Shown one piece after another: positions 53,358 to 60,272 of a stretch of DNA of 64,000 nucleotides. The notes below the pieces were generated by a model. That model saw nothing but the letters and a program-made list of their open reading frames with translations. It did not search any database and was not told the DNA's origin. Source of the DNA: Acidobacteriota bacterium (GTDB lineage Bacteria > Acidobacteriota > Polarisedimenticolia > Gp22-AA2); NCBI GenBank assembly GCA_003223135.1, contig QHXX01000021.1, positions 63,674 through 127,673 of the forward strand, given 5' to 3'. The translations under genes and the position numbers were made by a program. Within the stretch, counting starts at the first letter, position 1; every line of letters begins with the position of its first letter.

Positions 53358-55153
53358 GGCCTCACCTCCATCACCGGGCTGCGCTCCCTGGGGACGAGAG
53401 CCTCCACCTTGCGCTTCGCCAGCTCCTCGATCGACTCGGCGGAATCGAGCCTCAGAGCCTCCTCCACGAGGGCGCGCGCGTCGGCGAGGCTCAACGCCCG
53501 GATGACCTGCTTCACGGACGGGATGGCCGCGGGATTCATGCTCAGCTCCGTGATCCCGAGCCCGATCAGGACGACGGCCGTCACGGGATTCGACGCCATC
53601 TCCCCGCACACCGAGACGCGCAGACCCCGGTGCGCCGCCGCCTCGACCACACGGCGCACCAGATGCAGGATCGCCGGATGCAGCGGCTGGTACAGGTACG
53701 ACACGGATTCGTTGCCTCGATCGATGGCCAGGGCATACTGGATCAGGTCATTGGTGCCGATGGAAAAGAAGTCGACCTCGCGCGCCAGGCGGTCCGCGAT
53801 CAGCGCCGCCGCAGGCACCTCGATCATCACGCCCAGCGGCACGTCCGGGTCGCACGGTATGTGCTGCGCAAGAAGCTCCTGGCGCACATCCTCCACGATG
53901 GCCCGCGCGCGGCGCAGCTCGTCGATGCCAGTCACCATAGGGAAGAGCATGCGCACCTTGCCATGCGCCGCCGCGCGGAAGACGCCGCGGAGCTGCGTGC
54001 GGAACAGATCCTCGTGCTTCAGGCACAGTCTGATGCCGCGCAGCCCCAGGACAGGGTTGGTCTCGCGGTGCTCCAGGATGGTCGAGAAGTACTTCTCGCC
54101 ACCCAGATCGAGGGTGCGAATCACCACCTCGTCGGGCAGGGCCCTCTCGGCCAGCTCCCGGTAGGTCCGATAATGCTCCTCCTCCCCCGGCAGCCCGGGC
54201 GCCTCGCGCAGGTACAGGAATTCGGAGCGGTACAGCCCGACTCCCTCCGCGCCGAACCGGCGCGCCGCCAGCATCTCCTCCGGCAACTCGACGTTCGCCA
54301 TCAGACGCACGCGCAGACCCTCGCGCGTCGTCGCCGGCTGATCGCGCAGGATCATAAGATCGAGCTCGCGCTGCGCCTTCCGCGCCTGGAGCTCGCGCCA
54401 CGCCGCCGTCTCTTCCTCCCCGGGATTGTGCAGGACCACCCCCTCGCTTCCGTCCAGGATCAGGAGGTCGCCGCTCCGCACCCGGGTGCTGGCATCCCGG
54501 AGTCCGGCCACGGCCGGGATGCCCAGGGCGCTCGCGATGATCGCCGTGTGAGAGGTCGGACCACCGCCGTCGATCGCCAGACCGATGACGTGCTCGCGAT
54601 TCAACCCTGCCGCGTCCGAGGGCGACAGCGCCGCACCGACGACGATCACGTCGTCCATCAGCTCGGAGAGGTCGTGCCGTTTCTTGCTGCCGCTCAGGAG
54701 GGCCTGCACCCGGGCCGCCACGTCCTCGATGTCGGTGCCGCGGTCCCTGAGCGCCTGGTCGCCGAGCTGCGCGAACACCTGAGTGTAGCGTCCGACGACG
54801 GTGTGGAAGGCCCACTCGCCGTTGGCGCGCTCGCGGCGGATGAGGGCGGTGGTCTCCTGCAGGAGGGCCCGGTCTTTCAGGATCAGGATCTGGGCCTCGA
54901 AGACACGCGCGAACGGCTCGCCGGCCTCGCTGCGGACACGGTCGCGAAGGTGGCGGAGCTGCCGCCAGGCACGCCGCACCGCCCGCTGGAATCGCAGAAC
55001 CTCGCGCTCCGCCTCGTCGGACGAGAGATCGAGGCGGAAGATGGCGATGTTCGGGCCCTCCAGGACCAGCGCCCGGCCGATGGCGATGCCCGGCGACACA
55101 CCGAGGCCGCGCAACGTCGTTCCGTCGTCGTGCCCGCCCGTCGACATCGTCAC
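53354..55153 (-). CDS. ptsI: PTS enzyme I (PEP-protein phosphotransferase)
   Basis: GGPTSHTAI (phospho-His), GLYRSEFL, RTLDLGGEK, LGLRGIR, SIGTNDL, CGEMA. Confidence 0.96.
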   Translation of the reverse strand: MTMSTGGHDDGTTLRGLGVSPGIAIGRALVLEGPNIAIFRLDLSSDEAEREVLRFQRAVRRAWRQLRHLRDRVRSEAGEPFARVFEAQILILKDRALLQETTALIRRERANGEWAFHTVVGRYTQVFAQLGDQALRDRGTDIEDVAARVQALLSGSKKRHDLSELMDDVIVVGAALSPSDAAGLNREHVIGLAIDGGGPTSHTAIIASALGIPAVAGLRDASTRVRSGDLLILDGSEGVVLHNPGEEETAAWRELQARKAQRELDLMILRDQPATTREGLRVRLMANVELPEEMLAARRFGAEGVGLYRSEFLYLREAPGLPGEEEHYRTYRELAERALPDEVVIRTLDLGGEKYFSTILEHRETNPVLGLRGIRLCLKHEDLFRTQLRGVFRAAAHGKVRMLFPMVTGIDELRRARAIVEDVRQELLAQHIPCDPDVPLGVMIEVPAAALIADRLAREVDFFSIGTNDLIQYALAIDRGNESVSYLYQPLHPAILHLVRRVVEAAAHRGLRVSVCGEMASNPVTAVVLIGLGITELSMNPAAIPSVKQVIRALSLADARALVEEALRLDSAESIEELAKRKVEALVPRERSPVMEVRP

Positions 55154-55419
55154 CTTTCCTCGCCGAAGCGCGCCTGCACCAGTTCGACCAGAGAGCGCAG
55201 CGCCTGCTGTTCGTCCGTTCCGTCGGCGCTGATGGTCAGGCAGGTGCCCTGAGCACCCACCAGCGCCAGGAGTCCTAGGATCGACTTGCCGTCCGCCGTG
55301 CGCCCCCCGTGCGAAATCTTGATGCGGCTCTTGAACCGGCTGGCGACCTGCACGAAGCGGGCCGCGGCCCGGGCGTGCAGGCCGAGCGCGTTGCAGATGA
55401 CCACCTCCTGCCGGATCAC
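55150..55419 (-). CDS. ptsH: phosphocarrier protein HPr/NPr
   Basis: GLHARAA (His15) and GKSILGLL (Ser46). Confidence 0.93.
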   Translation of the reverse strand: MIRQEVVICNALGLHARAAARFVQVASRFKSRIKISHGGRTADGKSILGLLALVGAQGTCLTISADGTDEQQALRSLVELVQARFGEER

Positions 55420-55865
55420 GCCGTGTCCCGCCCGGAAGGGCCCAGGTATTCGGTGGCGATGGCGATCGATCGCTGTCCCTGCTCCTTGATGCGCGCCGCG
55501 GCCTCGTTGAGGGAGCATTTGTCGCGGATGTTGGCGTATTTGATCAGCATCGGCAGGTTCACGCCGGTCACGATCTCCACGCCCTCGCGCAGGAATGCCA
55601 GCGTCACGTTGGTGGCCGTGCCACCGAACATGTCGGTCAGGATCAGGACACCGCCGCCGGGATCGACTTCCGCGATCGCCTGTTCGACGGCCCGGCGCGC
55701 CTGCGGCAGCTCGTCGTCCCAGCCGATGGTCAGGGCCTTCAGGCCCTCGACCTTCCCCACGATGCGCTCCAGCGCCCGTACCAGCTCAAAGGCCAGCCCG
55801 CCGTGCGTGACCACGAGCACGCCGAAGCGCGCCTCGCCCGCGGCCTCGACCACGATCGACATCAT
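55416..55865 (-). CDS. PTS EIIA-Man-type component (stand-alone)
   Basis: VVTHGGLA, LTDMFGGT, GVNLPMLI. Confidence 0.92.
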   Translation of the reverse strand: MMSIVVEAAGEARFGVLVVTHGGLAFELVRALERIVGKVEGLKALTIGWDDELPQARRAVEQAIAEVDPGGGVLILTDMFGGTATNVTLAFLREGVEIVTGVNLPMLIKYANIRDKCSLNEAAARIKEQGQRSIAIATEYLGPSGRDTA

Positions 55866-56755
55866 TATTCCTTGTCCAGATCGCGGTGCGACGCCTTCAC
55901 CGCGTATCCCCGGTCGCAGAGCGCCCGGCTCACCGCCTCGGCCATCGCCACCGAGCGGTGCCGCCCGCCCGTGCACCCCACCGCCACGGTCAGGTAGCTC
56001 TTCCCCTCGCGGATGTACTGCGGAATCAGGAAGGCCACGAGATCGACGATGCGCGCGAGAAACTCACGGTACTCGGAGATCGCTTCCAGGTAGTCGCGTA
56101 CCTCCGGATCGAGCCCGCTGCGGCCGCGAAGGCCATCCACGAAGAAAGGGTTCGGCAGGAACCGGGTGTCGAACAGCAGGTCCGATTCCGCCGGCACGCC
56201 ATGCTTGTAACCGAACGACACGACGGAGATTCCGATCGGCTGACCTCCGGTTTGCGGCGCGAAATGCTCCTGGATATAGCGCCGCAGCTCGTGCACGTTG
56301 AACCGGCTGCTGTCGATGATCAGGTCGGCCCGCTCGCGCAACGGCTCGAGCATCAGGCGCTCTCGCCGGATTCCCTCCTCGAGCGAACCGCCCGACGCCA
56401 GGGGGTGGGGGCGGCGCGTTTCGGAGAAGCGGCGGATCAGAGCCTCGTCGTCGGCCTCGAAGAACAGCAGGCGGGCGCGGTGTCCCTGGGTCCGGCGCAG
56501 GGTGTCGAAGATCGCCGGGAACTCTCCGAGGAACGTTCCCTCGCGCACGTCCACGACCAGGGCGGCGCGCCTCAGGTCCGGTCGCCTGGCGCACAGGTCG
56601 GCGAACACGGGAATCAGCGCGACGGGGAGGTTGTCGACGCAGAAATATCCCATGTCCTCGAAGGCGCGGGTCGTGAGGGTCTTCCCGGAACCGGAGAGCC
56701 CCGTGATCACCACGATCTCGAACTCACGGTCCGGCGCCGGATCACCGGCGGTCAC
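55865..56755 (-). CDS. rapZ: RNase adapter / P-loop protein RapZ
   Basis: ITGLSGSGKT, CVDNLP, ETRRPHPL, SFGYKHG, GCTGGRHRSV; GTG overlaps the hprK stop. Confidence 0.94.
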   Translation of the reverse strand: MTAGDPAPDREFEIVVITGLSGSGKTLTTRAFEDMGYFCVDNLPVALIPVFADLCARRPDLRRAALVVDVREGTFLGEFPAIFDTLRRTQGHRARLLFFEADDEALIRRFSETRRPHPLASGGSLEEGIRRERLMLEPLRERADLIIDSSRFNVHELRRYIQEHFAPQTGGQPIGISVVSFGYKHGVPAESDLLFDTRFLPNPFFVDGLRGRSGLDPEVRDYLEAISEYREFLARIVDLVAFLIPQYIREGKSYLTVAVGCTGGRHRSVAMAEAVSRALCDRGYAVKASHRDLDKE

Positions 56756-57753
56756 GACTTCCTTCCCAGCGCGTCCTGGATGCGACCCGCCAGCTCCTTG
56801 GCGGCATGGTACCCTTTGCGCTTCAGGAGGTGATGGCGCGCCGCCACCTCCAGAAGGATCGACAGGTTCCGCCCCGGACCGACCGGCATCTCGATGAACG
56901 GCAGCTCCACGCCCAGGATCGTATACTTCTTCTCGTCCAGGCCCAGGCGGTCGTACACCTTGTCTTCCTGCCACGGGTCGAGCTTCACCACGAGGTCGAG
57001 GTCCTTGCGCTCGCGCACCGCCGCGACGCCATACAGATCTTTGATGTTGATGATCCCCAGTCCCCGCAGCTCCATGTGGTATCGACTGACCTCGGGGCCG
57101 GTGCCGTTCAGGAGTGTTCCGACGCGCCTGATGGTCACCGTGTCGTCGGAGACCAGGCGGTGCCCCCTGAGGATGAGCTCCAGGGCCGACTCGCTCTTGC
57201 CGACGCCGCTCTCTCCCAGGATGAGCACGCCGACACCGTAGATGTCGATGAGCGTGCCGTGCAGCGCCACGGAGGGAGCGAGACGCTCCTCCAGGTACCG
57301 GCCGAGGAGATCGATGGCCCTTTCGGTCGTGCGCGGTGTCGACAGGAGCGGAATCGCCAGGTGCTCGGCAGCATCCAGAAGGTCGGGGTGGGGGGCCGCG
57401 CCATGGGTCAGGAGCAGGCACGGGATCGACGCCGCGCCGAGGCGCTCCACCAGGAGTCGCCGCTGCTCCTCCGGGATGCGGCCGAGGTAGGCGACCTCGC
57501 TCTTCCCCAGGACCTGCACGGCCCCGGCCAGGAGGGTGTCCGCGTGACCGGCGAGCGCCAGTCCCGGTCTTTCGGGAACGGAACAGGCAATGTCGCGTTT
57601 CAGGCCGGCCCGACCGGCGACGAGGCGCAGGGTCAGCTCCGCCGGGGCCTCGGACAGGAGATCACCGACCGGCAGGGTGGGCCGGGGCGCCTCACGCTGG
57701 TTCAACCTTGGCCTCCGCGTCCCGCGGGTGTGCTCCGGGAGCGCTCCCGACAA
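56752..57753 (-). CDS. hprK: HPr kinase/phosphorylase
   Basis: RPGLALAG, LHGTLIDIYGVGVLILGESGVGKSESAL, LVSDD, MELRGLGII; start uncertain. Confidence 0.94.
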   Translation of the reverse strand: MSGALPEHTRGTRRPRLNQREAPRPTLPVGDLLSEAPAELTLRLVAGRAGLKRDIACSVPERPGLALAGHADTLLAGAVQVLGKSEVAYLGRIPEEQRRLLVERLGAASIPCLLLTHGAAPHPDLLDAAEHLAIPLLSTPRTTERAIDLLGRYLEERLAPSVALHGTLIDIYGVGVLILGESGVGKSESALELILRGHRLVSDDTVTIRRVGTLLNGTGPEVSRYHMELRGLGIINIKDLYGVAAVRERKDLDLVVKLDPWQEDKVYDRLGLDEKKYTILGVELPFIEMPVGPGRNLSILLEVAARHHLLKRKGYHAAKELAGRIQDALGRKS

Positions 57754-57770
57754 AGCCGCAAATCACGGCC

Positions 57771-57799
57771 ATTCTAGGACTTGGAACGGGGGCTGTCAA
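57771..57799 (-). promoter_or_regulatory. sigma70 promoter of the hprK operon
   Basis: Minus strand TTGACA, 17 bp, TAGAAT. Confidence 0.75.
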
Positions 57800-57835
57800 G
57801 AAAACGAGGGCCGTGGAATCGAAGGATTTCCTTCA

Positions 57836-57864
57836 TTGACCCCCGGGGCGCCGAATGGTATGTT
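57836..57864 (+). promoter_or_regulatory. sigma70 promoter of the GAPDH-like gene
   Basis: TTGACC, 17 bp, TATGTT preceded by TGG (extended -10). Confidence 0.65.
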
Positions 57865-57910
57865 TCGAGTCGGCAAAGGGCGTTCTATCCCGCTGGACTG
57901 GGAGACCGTG

Positions 57911-58984
57911 ATGGCCTCGAAAAAAGTCGTCCATATCATCGGCACGGGTACGATCGGGGAGCCTCTCATCGGACTGTTCACCGACAAAAAGGATCTGCTC
58001 GGCTTCGACGAGGTGACCTTCCACAAGCGGACCCCACTCCTGACGGATCGATCCAAGGTCGTCAACCTGCTCAAGCCCGGCGCCCGCCTCGCGTGCGACG
58101 AGTCGGCTCGGCGGGGCTTCCGGGAGATCGGTATCGAGCCCGCGTACGAGCACCACGAGGCGCTGCGGCAGGCGACCGTGGTCATCGACTGCACGCCCTC
58201 GGACGTCGGGCTGCAGAACAAGAAAGAGATCTACGAGAAGTACGCCCACAACACCCTGGGCTTCATCGCTCAGGGTTCCGAGTTCGGGTTCGGGAAGATG
58301 TATGCCCGCGGTATCAATGACCGCACACTCAAGAAGGGCGTCGACCAGTACATCCAGGTCGTGTCCTGCAACACGCACAATCTCGCGGTCATCATCGATC
58401 TGATCGGCCTTCGGGACCAGGGCCCCGACAACCTCGCCGAGGGACGCTTCATCTGCATCCGCCGCGCCAACGACATCAGCCAGGACAGCTCCTTCGTACC
58501 GTCGCCCCAGGTCAACCGGCACAAGGACGAGCGCTTCGGCACACACCATGCCCGGGACGCCTGGCACCTGTTCAACACGCTGGGCCACGACCTGAACTTG
58601 TACTCCTCGTCCCTCAAGGTCAACAGCCAGTATATGCACGCGATCCACTTCAACCTCCGGCTCAGGAAGCCCACGACTTCAGAGGGAATCCTGGACAGGA
58701 TCAAGAAGGACGATCGCATGGCCCTCACCTATAAGCAATCGGCGAACTCGGTCTTTTCCTTCGGGCGGGACTACGGGCACTACGGGCGCATCCTGAACCA
58801 GGGCGTCCTGGTGGTCCCGACGCTCGCCGTCCACGACGGCCATGAGGTCGTCGGCTTCTGCTTCACGCCCCAGGACGGCAACGCCCTGATCAGCAGCGTG
58901 GCCGCCGCGTGCTGGTTCGTCTACCCCGAGACGTACGAGCAGAAATTGAACTGCCTGAACGACTCGATCTTCGACGAAGTCTAA
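57911..58984 (+). CDS. archaeal-type (class II) glyceraldehyde-3-phosphate dehydrogenase-like protein
   Basis: GTGTIG, IDCTP, AQGSE, VVSCNT, RRAND, THH, YMHAIH parallel class II GAPDH motifs. Confidence 0.75.
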   Translation: MASKKVVHIIGTGTIGEPLIGLFTDKKDLLGFDEVTFHKRTPLLTDRSKVVNLLKPGARLACDESARRGFREIGIEPAYEHHEALRQATVVIDCTPSDVGLQNKKEIYEKYAHNTLGFIAQGSEFGFGKMYARGINDRTLKKGVDQYIQVVSCNTHNLAVIIDLIGLRDQGPDNLAEGRFICIRRANDISQDSSFVPSPQVNRHKDERFGTHHARDAWHLFNTLGHDLNLYSSSLKVNSQYMHAIHFNLRLRKPTTSEGILDRIKKDDRMALTYKQSANSVFSFGRDYGHYGRILNQGVLVVPTLAVHDGHEVVGFCFTPQDGNALISSVAAACWFVYPETYEQKLNCLNDSIFDEV

Positions 58985-59001
58985 GGCAGGACGGCTGGCG
59001 C

Positions 59002-59032
59002 GAGCACCCGCTGAACCGGCGGGGGGGTGCTC
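59002..59032. terminator. GC-rich hairpin between convergent GAPDH-like gene and fabF
   Basis: GAGCACCC...GGGTGCTC 8-bp inverted repeat; no U-tract. Confidence 0.35.
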
Positions 59033-60272
59033 AGCCCTCGTATTTCTTCAGGACAAGCGCGGCGTTCGTGCCCCCGAACCCGAACGAGTTGTTGAGGGCG
59101 TAGCGCACGGCCATCCGGCGCGCCTCGTTCGGGACGTAGTCCAGGTCGCACTCCGGGTCAGGCGTCGTGTAGTTGATGGTGGGCGGAACGACGTCCTCCC
59201 TCACCGCAAGGGCGACGATCGCCGTTTCCAGGCCGCCCGCCCCGCCCAGCAGGTGCCCGGTCATCGATTTCGTGCTGCTCACGGCCACGCGGCGCGCGCG
59301 TTCCCCGAAGAGTGTCTTGAGGGCGCGGGTCTCCACGGCGTCCCCCTGGGGCGTCGAGGTCCCATGGGCGTTCACATAGTCGATGGCGGTCGGGTCGACG
59401 CCCGCGTCCTCGATCGCCCGGCGCATGACCCGCACGGGGCCGTCGCCGTCCTCCGCGGGGGCCGAGACGTGATACGCGTCCCCCGACACGCCGTACCCCG
59501 CCACCTCGGCGTAGACTGCCGCGTGGCGGCGCACGGCGTGTCCCAAGTCCTCGAGGATGACGATCCCGGCTCCCTCACTGATGACGAACCCGTCGCGCCC
59601 GGCGTCGAAGGGGCGCGAGGCACCCGGCGGGTCGTCGTTGCGCGTGGACAGGGCGCGCATGGCGGAGAAGCCGCCCACGCAGAGCGGAGCGATGACTCCT
59701 TCGCACCCTCCGGCGATCATGACGTCGGCATCGCCGCGCTTGATGATCTCGAAGGCGTCGCCGATGGCATGCGTACCGGTGGCGCACGCCGTGCAGGCCG
59801 CCTGGTTGGGCCCCTTGGCGCCGTAGCGAATCGACACCTGCCCGGAGGCCATATTGACGATGAGTCCGATGATGAAGAAAGGAGACACCCGGCGCGGGCC
59901 CTCGCGCAACAGGATCGCGTGCTGGCGCTCGATCGAGGGGAGCCCGCCGATCCCCGAGCCGATGTACACGCCGACCCGATCGGCCTCGGACGGCTTCACC
60001 TGGAAGGCGGCGTCGCGCATGGCGATCTCCGCCGCCGCCATCGCGTAGTGGATGAACAGGTCCATCTTCTTGACGTCTTTCTTCGATACCCAGTCCTCGG
60101 GATTGAACCCCTTCACCTCTCCCGCGATGCGGCACGGGTAATCGCCGGCGTCGAAGCGCGTGATCGGACCGATACCGCTTCGTCCCTGGAGCAGACCCTG
60201 CCAGTTCTCTTGATTGCCAATCCCGAGGGGCGAAACCATGCCCACCCCGGTGATGACGACGCGCCTGTCCAT
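59031..60272 (-). CDS. fabF: 3-oxoacyl-ACP synthase II
   Basis: [31 protein letters not shown]. Confidence 0.97.

Follow-up and report, generated by a model that had tools for sequence, protein, structure and literature searches.

A divergent class II-like glyceraldehyde-3-phosphate dehydrogenase, likely functional, from a mainly bacterial protein family

The window analysed here is a stretch of 64,000 nucleotides from the genome of an Acidobacteriota bacterium of the class Polarisedimenticolia (contig QHXX01000021.1, positions 63,674 to 127,673 of the forward strand). One plus-strand gene of the window encodes a protein of 357 residues, P0001, which resembles the class II glyceraldehyde-3-phosphate dehydrogenases (GAPDHs) of Archaea. 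We consider it likely that this gene encodes a functional phosphorylating GAPDH and that the enzyme belongs to a separate, mostly bacterial clade, the sister of the canonical archaeal class II enzymes.

The gene lies in the sole long plus-strand open reading frame (ORF) of this region, 57590-58984. The original prediction, which was made from the letters alone, placed it at 57836-58984; the end is exact, but position 57836 is the first base of an in-frame TTG that opens the -35 box of a promoter-like TTGACC-17-TATGTT sequence. ATG 57911 is the likely start, because it is preceded by a GGGAGA sequence, because the N-terminus M(A/S/D)xK..V(H)(I/V)(I/V)GTGTIG, continuing as GTGTIGEPL, begins at the equivalent Met in 20 related loci, and because 357 residues is the length of most homologues. 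All seven motifs listed in the original prediction were found in a single frame and in the order given there, and the class I SCTTN signature is absent. The gene and its motifs are located as follows, 1CF2 being the structure of the class II GAPDH of M. fervidus.

57911..58984, plus strand: coding sequence of P0001, 357 residues, divergent class II-like GAPDH (profile scores, search of PDB with a family profile, AlphaFold2 model, homologue lengths and shared N-terminus)
57900..57905, plus strand: Shine-Dalgarno-like GGGAGA, 5 nt upstream of ATG 57911, with GGAG-type sites at the same place in relatives
57941..57958, plus strand: GTGTIG dinucleotide-binding loop, residues 11-16 (motif and alignment)
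58022-58036, plus strand: HKRTP, containing Lys39 (58025-58027)
58184-58198, plus strand: IDCTP, residues 92-96
58268-58282, plus strand: AQGSE, residues 120-124
58358-58375, plus strand: VVSCNT, residues 150-155
58364..58381, plus strand: active-site block SCNTHN, residues 152-157, with Ser152, Cys153, Asn154, Thr155 and the family-specific His156
58460..58474, plus strand: RRAND, residues 184-188; Arg184/Arg185 correspond to Arg167/Arg168 of 1CF2
58541..58549, plus strand: THH, residues 211-213; His212/His213 correspond to His193/His194 of 1CF2, in the inorganic-phosphate site
58634..58648, plus strand: MHAIH, residues 242-246; His243 is the counterpart of His219 of 1CF2, the Cys-activating base

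Among the NCBIfam hidden Markov models (HMMs), P0001 matched the type II GAPDH models only: NF003251 with 84.9 bits (cut-off 185) and TIGR01546 with 57.3 bits (cut-off 232.9). Both scores are far below cut-off and leave P0001 outside the canonical class II equivalogs. NF003251 was also matched by 65 of 68 family representatives, none of which scored above the cut-off. The models for class I GAPDH (TIGR01534), Asd, ArgC, DapB and Epd gave no match to P0001 at E ≤ 1, and the Asd model was touched by a single one of the 68 representatives (E = 7e-4). In Pfam, P0001 gave one sub-threshold hit, to Gp_dh_C (13.9 bits versus 24.4). A better score as an Asd/ArgC/DapB-like protein or as a class I GAPDH, which the original prediction had named as one outcome that would count against it, was thus not seen with these HMMs. 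Membership of P0001 in Asd/ArgC/DapB is ruled out by the scores, and P0001 is no class I enzyme either, as it has no TIGR01534 match and reads SCNTHN at the active site.

Searches against PDB pointed in the same direction. With the single P0001 sequence as query, four archaeal GAPDH structures were the only hits (E = 2e-8 to 1e-6); with a profile of 68 diverse members, the same four were retrieved over the full length (E = 2e-39 to 2e-32), and class I GAPDH and erythrose-4-phosphate dehydrogenase (E4PDH) followed at ∼1e-7 and weaker. The AlphaFold2 model of P0001 has a pLDDT of 97.5 and a pTM of 0.94. The top six Foldseek hits of the model are chains of 2czc, 2yyy, 1cf2 and 1b7g, with TM-scores of 0.81-0.88, root-mean-square deviations of 2.5-2.8 Å and 20-22% identity; compared to these, the TM-scores of the class I structures are only ∼0.6-0.67. 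The class II fold is therefore present over the full length. Judged from the profiles, the resemblance to archaeal GAPDH is far beyond chance, and P0001 is distantly related to the class II enzymes of Archaea; the proposed assignment to class II rather than class I was borne out by the HMM scores, the PDB profile search and the fold alike.

The roles of the active-site residues are known for the M. fervidus enzyme, as summarised in a 2025 review of the work of Charron et al. 2000 (PMC12041015). Cys140 is the nucleophile and His219, aided by Asn141, is the base; Ser139, Asn141, Arg167, His193 and His194 form the inorganic-phosphate (Pi) site, Arg167 and Arg168 bind the substrate phosphate (Ps site), and one Lys after strand β2, Lys33 in 1CF2, accompanies NADP+ use (PMC12041015). 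In the HMMER alignment, these residues map to Ser152, Cys153, Asn154, Arg184, Arg185, His212, His213, His243 and Lys39 of P0001, so that all catalytic, Pi-site, Ps-site and NADP-site residues of the M. fervidus enzyme are kept. P0001 has no acidic residue at the end of strand β2. Conservation was counted over the 68 family representatives, which are 26-52% identical to P0001. Cys153 is kept in 62/68, His243 in 65/68, Arg184 in 63/68, Arg185 in 66/68, His212 in 60/68 and Lys39 in 60/68; position 213 is His in 39/68 and Gln in 25/68. His156 is found in 64/68, at a position where canonical class II has Thr. An altered cofactor, which the original prediction had raised as a possibility, is not borne out with respect to archaeal class II, since the NADP-associated Lys is retained. 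An altered substrate likewise finds no support: no Pi-site or Ps-site residue has been lost, and most genomes of one bacterial order, Candidatus Entotheonellales, contain PGK but no GAPDH homologue other than this family. The chemistry of the family is probably that of an ordinary GAPDH.

The archaeal class II enzymes (EC 1.2.1.59; 1CF2 from M. fervidus, 1B7G from S. solfataricus, 2CZC from P. horikoshii and 2YYY from M. jannaschii) have in common with the family the motif order, the nucleophile in an SCNT block, an MH motif with the His base, the RR and HH residues of the phosphate sites and a Lys following strand β2; in one family lineage, the pgk-gap arrangement is shared as well. Different from them, the family scores less than half of the curated cut-offs and has no Pfam domain at threshold, and its hosts are almost all bacteria. 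The motifs also differ: GTGTIGEPL in the family versus NGYGTIGKR in archaeal class II, AQGSExGFG versus FQGGEK, SCNTH versus SCNTT, GTHHARDA versus PSHHGPDV, and FTPQDGNSLLSS versus HQESxVxPENxDA. In full, the family signatures are GTGTIGEPL, AQGSExGFG, SCNTH, RRANDxSQ, GTHHARDA, TQYMH, FSFGRDxGxYGRILNQ and FTPQDGNSLLSS. The divergent subfamily that had been proposed from the variants SCNTHN and QGSE is supported by these conserved motifs of its own, in particular SCNTH, AQGSExGFG, FSFGRDxGxYGRILNQ and FTPQDGNSLLSS. Class I GAPDH (GapA/GapB, TIGR01534) and Epd belong to the same superfamily, and they also form a thioester on a Cys, complete the reaction by phosphorolysis and work with PGK. However, compared to class II, class I uses a different His as base and different phosphate-site residues (PMC12041015).

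The family is large. A word-indexed search, in which 8,000 candidates were scored, yielded 6,963 family clusters at 90% identity; an exhaustive HMMER search gave 735 clusters at 50% identity with E ≤ 1e-3, 147 of them with E ≤ 1e-30. A motif scan over one genome per GTDB species matched at least 596 genomes, and taxonomy and loci were compared for the best 80 loci of these. All 80 come from metagenome-assembled genomes (MAGs), and they represent at least 13 named phyla; one host is a Thermoplasmatota archaeon and the rest are bacteria, including Acidobacteriota, Fidelibacterota (Marinimicrobia), Binatota, Krumholzibacteriota, Thermodesulfobacteriota, Myxococcota, Bipolaricaulota, Actinomycetota and Tectimicrobiota. 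Every named member that we saw is called 'hypothetical protein' at NCBI, and Pfam and NCBIfam give no above-threshold match for the family, whereas the canonical archaeal enzymes come with precomputed Pfam domains and are named type II GAPDH at NCBI. The JGI names, which are based on KEGG Orthology, are GAPDH (NAD(P)), GAPDH type II or GAPDH/E4PDH. In the literature on bacterial type II or archaeal-type GAPDH, Entotheonella GAPDH and K00150, we found no description of the family. One copy, 82% identical to that of the window and nested among Polarisedimenticolia, comes from a genome labelled Patescibacteria group bacterium (L011, DASRAN010000087.1); this bin is probably mislabelled or contaminated.

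The genome from which the window comes contains two class I GAPDH genes, so the class II-like gene is its third GAPDH-family gene; whether a class I gap exists in the genome had been left as a check by the original prediction. The first one (L093, G000:C4, 2334-5378, minus strand) heads a gap-pgk-tpiA operon and scores 351 bits against the TIGR01534 cut-off of 367.2. The second one (G000:C58) scores 391 bits, stands alone and adjoins a gene for a PD40 β-propeller protein. Both encode the (I/V)ND dipeptide that is typical of NAD-dependent GapA. Among 30 other genomes that carry the family, class I is present in 24 and absent from six, and all six have PGK; no canonical class II gene above cut-off was found in any of the 31 carrier genomes.

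Two of the six carriers without class I fall in one GTDB order, which is Candidatus Entotheonellales in NCBI naming (the order of G013). Class I GAPDH is missing from 12 of the 14 species genomes of this order. The family is carried by 13 of the 14, in one to three copies that score 520-544 bits, and PGK is present in all 14; the sole non-carrier has class I. Missing data are not an easy explanation of this pattern, since the genome of G013 is a single 4.29-Mb contig and several other Entotheonellales genomes have Mb-scale contigs. The Entotheonellales proteins are 57-59% identical to P0001 and keep 58-59 of the 63 family-invariant positions, including every active-site residue. To our knowledge, PGK has no role without 1,3-bisphosphoglycerate. 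Because PGK is kept, class I is mostly absent and no such other role of PGK is known, the family is the most parsimonious GAPDH of Entotheonellales; most likely, it is a real phosphorylating GAPDH.

Some further observations were made on the PGK and GAPDH genes of the carriers. In one Entotheonellales subclade (G013 and G036-G040; e.g. G013:C1:1845271-1846542), the only PGK is divergent and its frames are longer (459-488 residues), with ∼225-236 bits against Pfam PGK versus ∼505-520 bits in sister genomes; these genomes are the same ones that have no class I GAPDH. Tandem class I gap pairs occur in many carriers (e.g. G022:C11:13800-15807, G023:C22:87605-89624 and G021:C4:2747697-2749696), one gene being above the TIGR01534 cut-off and the other below it (∼235-345 bits); the sub-cut-off copy may be a second, divergent class I isoenzyme. 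In the sole Entotheonellales genome without the family, the class I gap lies in two overlapping frames, which reflects a frameshift or an assembly error (G031:C2:292219-293185). In another genome, one of three family copies is broken by a TAG codon (G032:C1:6000-7056).

Gene contexts were compared over the same 80 loci. In the Thermoplasmatota MAG (L035:4857-7050), the family gene (351 residues) lies 16 bp downstream of pgk (373 residues) on the same strand; the genome has neither class I nor canonical class II GAPDH, and its family protein is 59-61% identical to P0001. This MAG is either an archaeon or a misbinned contig with a bacterial-clade enzyme. PLP (pyridoxal 5′-phosphate) synthase, PdxS/PdxT, uses glyceraldehyde-3-phosphate (G3P). 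In Bipolaricaulota (L074:4451-7864), pdxS, pdxT, the family GAPDH gene and a gene for a comF-like phosphoribosyltransferase form a tight array, separated by 10, 19 and 4 bp. Both contexts, the one with pgk and the one with pdxS-pdxT, agree with a GAPDH function of the family. In three Marinimicrobia genomes (G004, G027 and G030), pdxS was seen ∼5 kb upstream of the family gene. Among the loci compared, pgk adjoins the family gene in L035 only, and the ORFs clustered from the 80 loci contained no partner gene common across phyla. The neighbours are rapZ/hprK and fab genes in Polarisedimenticolia; ccmC, ybdK-like and tilS-hpt-ftsH genes in Marinimicrobia; and tldD/pmbA and a DUF192 gene in Binatia and delta-proteobacterial lineages. 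The contexts of two very divergent members, P0226 and P0394, held nothing informative.

By homology to the M. fervidus enzyme, His243 of P0001 would activate Cys153, which would attack the aldehyde of G3P. Hydride would pass to NAD(P)+ held by the GTGTIG Rossmann domain, the C3 phosphate being held by Arg184 and Arg185. Inorganic phosphate, held by Ser152, Asn154, Arg184, His212 and His213, would then cleave the thioester to give 1,3-bisphosphoglycerate, and the enzyme would act together with PGK. In the window genome, this enzyme would be made from a single-copy, monocistronic gene with its own sigma-70-type promoter, beside two class I genes. Division of labour between isoenzymes exists in Bacillus, with NAD-dependent GapA and NADP-dependent GapB, and roles for class II beside class I have been reported in Haloferax volcanii; a role of P0001 analogous to that of GapB and parallel to those in Haloferax can be proposed. 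P0001 might be the NADP(H)-preferring, gluconeogenic isoenzyme of the window genome, an assignment that falls a little short of an even chance. It is suggested because the class I paralogues have the NAD-type dipeptide, Lys39 is kept, and an anabolic, NADP-linked role has been described for archaeal class II enzymes (PMC12525153).

Several points weigh against a functional GAPDH of this kind. The co-occurrence argument draws on MAGs without completeness values, the pgk and pdxST neighbourhoods were each seen in a single lineage, and the NADP preference rests on one aligned lysine. No role explains the family-specific, invariant His156 beside the catalytic Cys or the strongly conserved C-terminal motifs. 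The window genome has no need of a third GAPDH, and another role is possible there. Our literature search found no measured enzyme activity for any family member, and the NCBI names are hypothetical. The only bacterial type II GAPDH that has been assayed, CDQ83_07070 of P. thermosuccinogenes, showed no G3P oxidation with NAD+ or NADP+, in an assay of crude extract in the oxidative direction only (PMC6543838). CDQ83_07070 probably belongs to the canonical group, judged from its NCBI name type II GAPDH; its negative assay keeps some probability on an inactive or repurposed enzyme.

A repurposed enzyme is the alternative that survives best, although we regard it as unlikely. The family, at least where class I is present, would then act on another phosphorylated or acidic aldehyde, e.g. 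erythrose-4-phosphate for PLP synthesis or a C4 semialdehyde. Beyond the inactive bacterial type II enzyme (PMC6543838) and His156, it could draw on the two class I genes of the window genome, one of them in the gap-pgk-tpi operon. The window genome also follows the PdxJ route to PLP, which needs 4-phosphoerythronate (pdxJ, 284 bits; no pdxS). However, among the 31 carriers, pdxJ is present in only 7-9 and pdxS in 23-24, including the same-synteny relatives G022 and G023, and this distribution rules out E4P (erythrose-4-phosphate) dehydrogenase activity for PLP synthesis (Epd) as the family function. P0001 itself has no Epd, Asd or ArgC match and keeps every G3P and Pi site residue. It also has 58-59 of the 63 invariant positions in common with the sole-GAPDH orthologues of Entotheonellales, and its gene, which is single-copy and was inherited vertically, shows no sign of having diverged as a subfamily.

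Far less probable still is a catalytically silent or moonlighting protein of GAPDH fold with a non-metabolic role. Such roles were suggested by the authors of the negative assay for their inactive bacterial type II GAPDH (PMC6543838), but the catalytic Cys and His and the phosphate-site residues are kept in ∼60-66 of the 68 divergent representatives, proteins from different phyla are 57-61% identical, and in most genomes of Entotheonellales the family is the sole GAPDH homologue beside PGK. The functional phosphorylating GAPDH thus remains the reading that we favour.

To place this enzyme relative to Archaea, we computed a phylogeny from 68 family members, 13 canonical class II proteins and the two class I proteins of the window genome. 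In it, the canonical class II proteins group together with 100% support, on a stem of 2.71 substitutions per site, and P0001 falls outside this clade. In the free quick tree, canonical class II joined weakly (88% support) beside divergent family members. When the family was constrained as one clade, the log-likelihood was 28.4 higher than that of the free quick tree and p-AU was 0.77, so monophyly is not rejected; rooting by class I is unreliable because of very long branches. The family is thus a separate clade, probably monophyletic, whose sister group is plausibly canonical class II.

The gene is native and vertically inherited: at third codon positions its GC content (GC3) matches that of its neighbours, the branching of the gene tree agrees with the phyla, and 20 of 22 sampled genomes of the window's class carry it. 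GC3 is 0.891, and five genes nearby have values of 0.86-0.89. When the 79 closest loci are placed in a tree, the phylum labels need 14 changes, where the minimum is 12 and shuffled labels need 36.5 on average; the window copy nests among the Acidobacteriota/Polarisedimenticolia copies. Across the window's phylum, sampled evenly, the gene was present in 61 of 251 species genomes and never in more than one copy. Its location, flanked by the rapZ/hprK operon on one side and the fab operon on the other, is kept in relatives down to 66-82% protein identity, with local variants: one relative has etfAB inserted, and in another hprK has been replaced. Recent horizontal acquisition of an archaeal class II GAPDH, to which the class II-type motifs, the total GC content of the gene below that of its flanks (0.616 versus 0.68-0.72) and its standing as a lone plus-strand gene between two minus-strand operons might point, is effectively refuted by this inheritance and kept synteny, by HMM scores far under the equivalog cut-offs, by the separate canonical clade with its long stem and the unrejected monophyly, and by the GC drop itself, which sits in codon positions 1 and 2 and so reflects amino-acid composition. 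Of the two origins that the original prediction had offered, it is therefore not horizontal acquisition but an unrecognised bacterial clade that is favoured by the family size, the host range and the phylogeny with archaeal sequences.

A different picture is given by the sporadic canonical type II GAPDHs of bacteria, namely P0308 and CDQ83_07070 of Pseudoclostridium thermosuccinogenes, which are likewise class II-type and have bacterial hosts with class I. P0308, from a Candidatus Acidoferrales MAG (Acidobacteriota), does not belong to the family: it shares 56% identity with the M. jannaschii enzyme, bears the NCBI name type II GAPDH, has the Pfam domains and branches within the archaeal clade. 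It seems to be a genuine transfer from Archaea to Bacteria. The sporadic canonical group as a whole looks like transfers from Archaea, whereas the family of the window does not.

GAPDH is a classic case in central metabolism: its two classes were thought to track the divide between Archaea and Bacteria. We see an even chance that the family is a third major lineage of GAPDH: an ancient, essentially bacterial sister clade of class II, vertically inherited in many uncultured phyla (Acidobacteriota/Polarisedimenticolia, Marinimicrobia, Binatota, Krumholzibacteriota, Desulfomonilaceae-like lineages, Bipolaricaulota and Tectimicrobiota) and the one GAPDH present in entire orders such as Entotheonellales. 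In that case, the textbook assignment of class I to Bacteria and class II to Archaea would not be domain-exclusive, and reconstructions based on Pfam or PGAP names would wrongly score the trunk of glycolysis/gluconeogenesis as broken in these groups. Recognition of the clade would fill this apparent gap in Entotheonellales and some other MAG lineages, and would add a deep bacterial branch to reconstructions of early gluconeogenesis. Polarisedimenticolia would be a testable case for division of labour among three GAPDH isoenzymes. A recent review treats archaeal-type copies in bacteria as rare transfers (PMC12525153), and according to a 2019 paper there is no functional evidence for class II GAPDH in bacteria (PMC6543838). 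The interest lies in the size, the age and the annotation blindness of the bacterial clade and in its sole-GAPDH status in most genomes of one order, the chemistry being expected to be ordinary.

In the window, the gene is monocistronic and lies between two minus-strand operons. On the divergent side, hprK, rapZ and the genes of EIIA-Man and ptsI (EI) are each confirmed by Pfam on the minus strand. HPr is inferred from the ORF 55150-55518 and from a syntenic PF00381 gene in a relative (L006); at the window coordinates tried, HPr gave no Pfam match. The convergent side holds fabF, acpP, fabG and fabD. The features around the gene are as follows.

56752..57753, minus strand: hprK (HPr kinase/phosphorylase), first gene of the divergent operon (PF07475, 213.7 bits; PF02603, 85.4 bits)
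57771..57799, minus strand: divergent promoter-like TTGACA-17-TAGAAT for the hprK-rapZ-PTS (phosphotransferase system) operon, 11/12 matches
57836..57864, plus strand: promoter-like TTGACC-17-(TG)TATGTT of the gene (sequence match; elements kept in relatives)
58990..59039, no strand assigned: GC-rich hairpin in the 46-bp convergent spacer before fabF, overlapping the fabF stop codon (-29.6 kcal/mol, z = -1.47)

Both promoter-like sites are kept in close relatives. TTGAC[CA] and TGnTATCTT/CATAGT are found upstream of the gene in L003, L006, L008-L010, L012 and L013, and CTTGACAG...CCTAGAAT is kept on the hprK-side strand. The back-to-back promoters noted in the original prediction are thus present, but the co-regulation with hprK that they were taken to hint at is not supported: the distance between the two -35 boxes varies from ∼13 to 36 bp across relatives, no shared operator or palindrome was seen between the divergent promoters, and outside Polarisedimenticolia the gene has unrelated neighbours. 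The pairing of the gene with hprK is a lineage-specific synteny, which does not by itself speak for co-regulation, and a coupling to carbon-flux signalling is speculation. On the convergent side, the hairpin at 58990..59039 is not statistically distinct from shuffled sequence. A terminator-like site is listed at 59023-59039, and the hairpin may serve as a bidirectional terminator.

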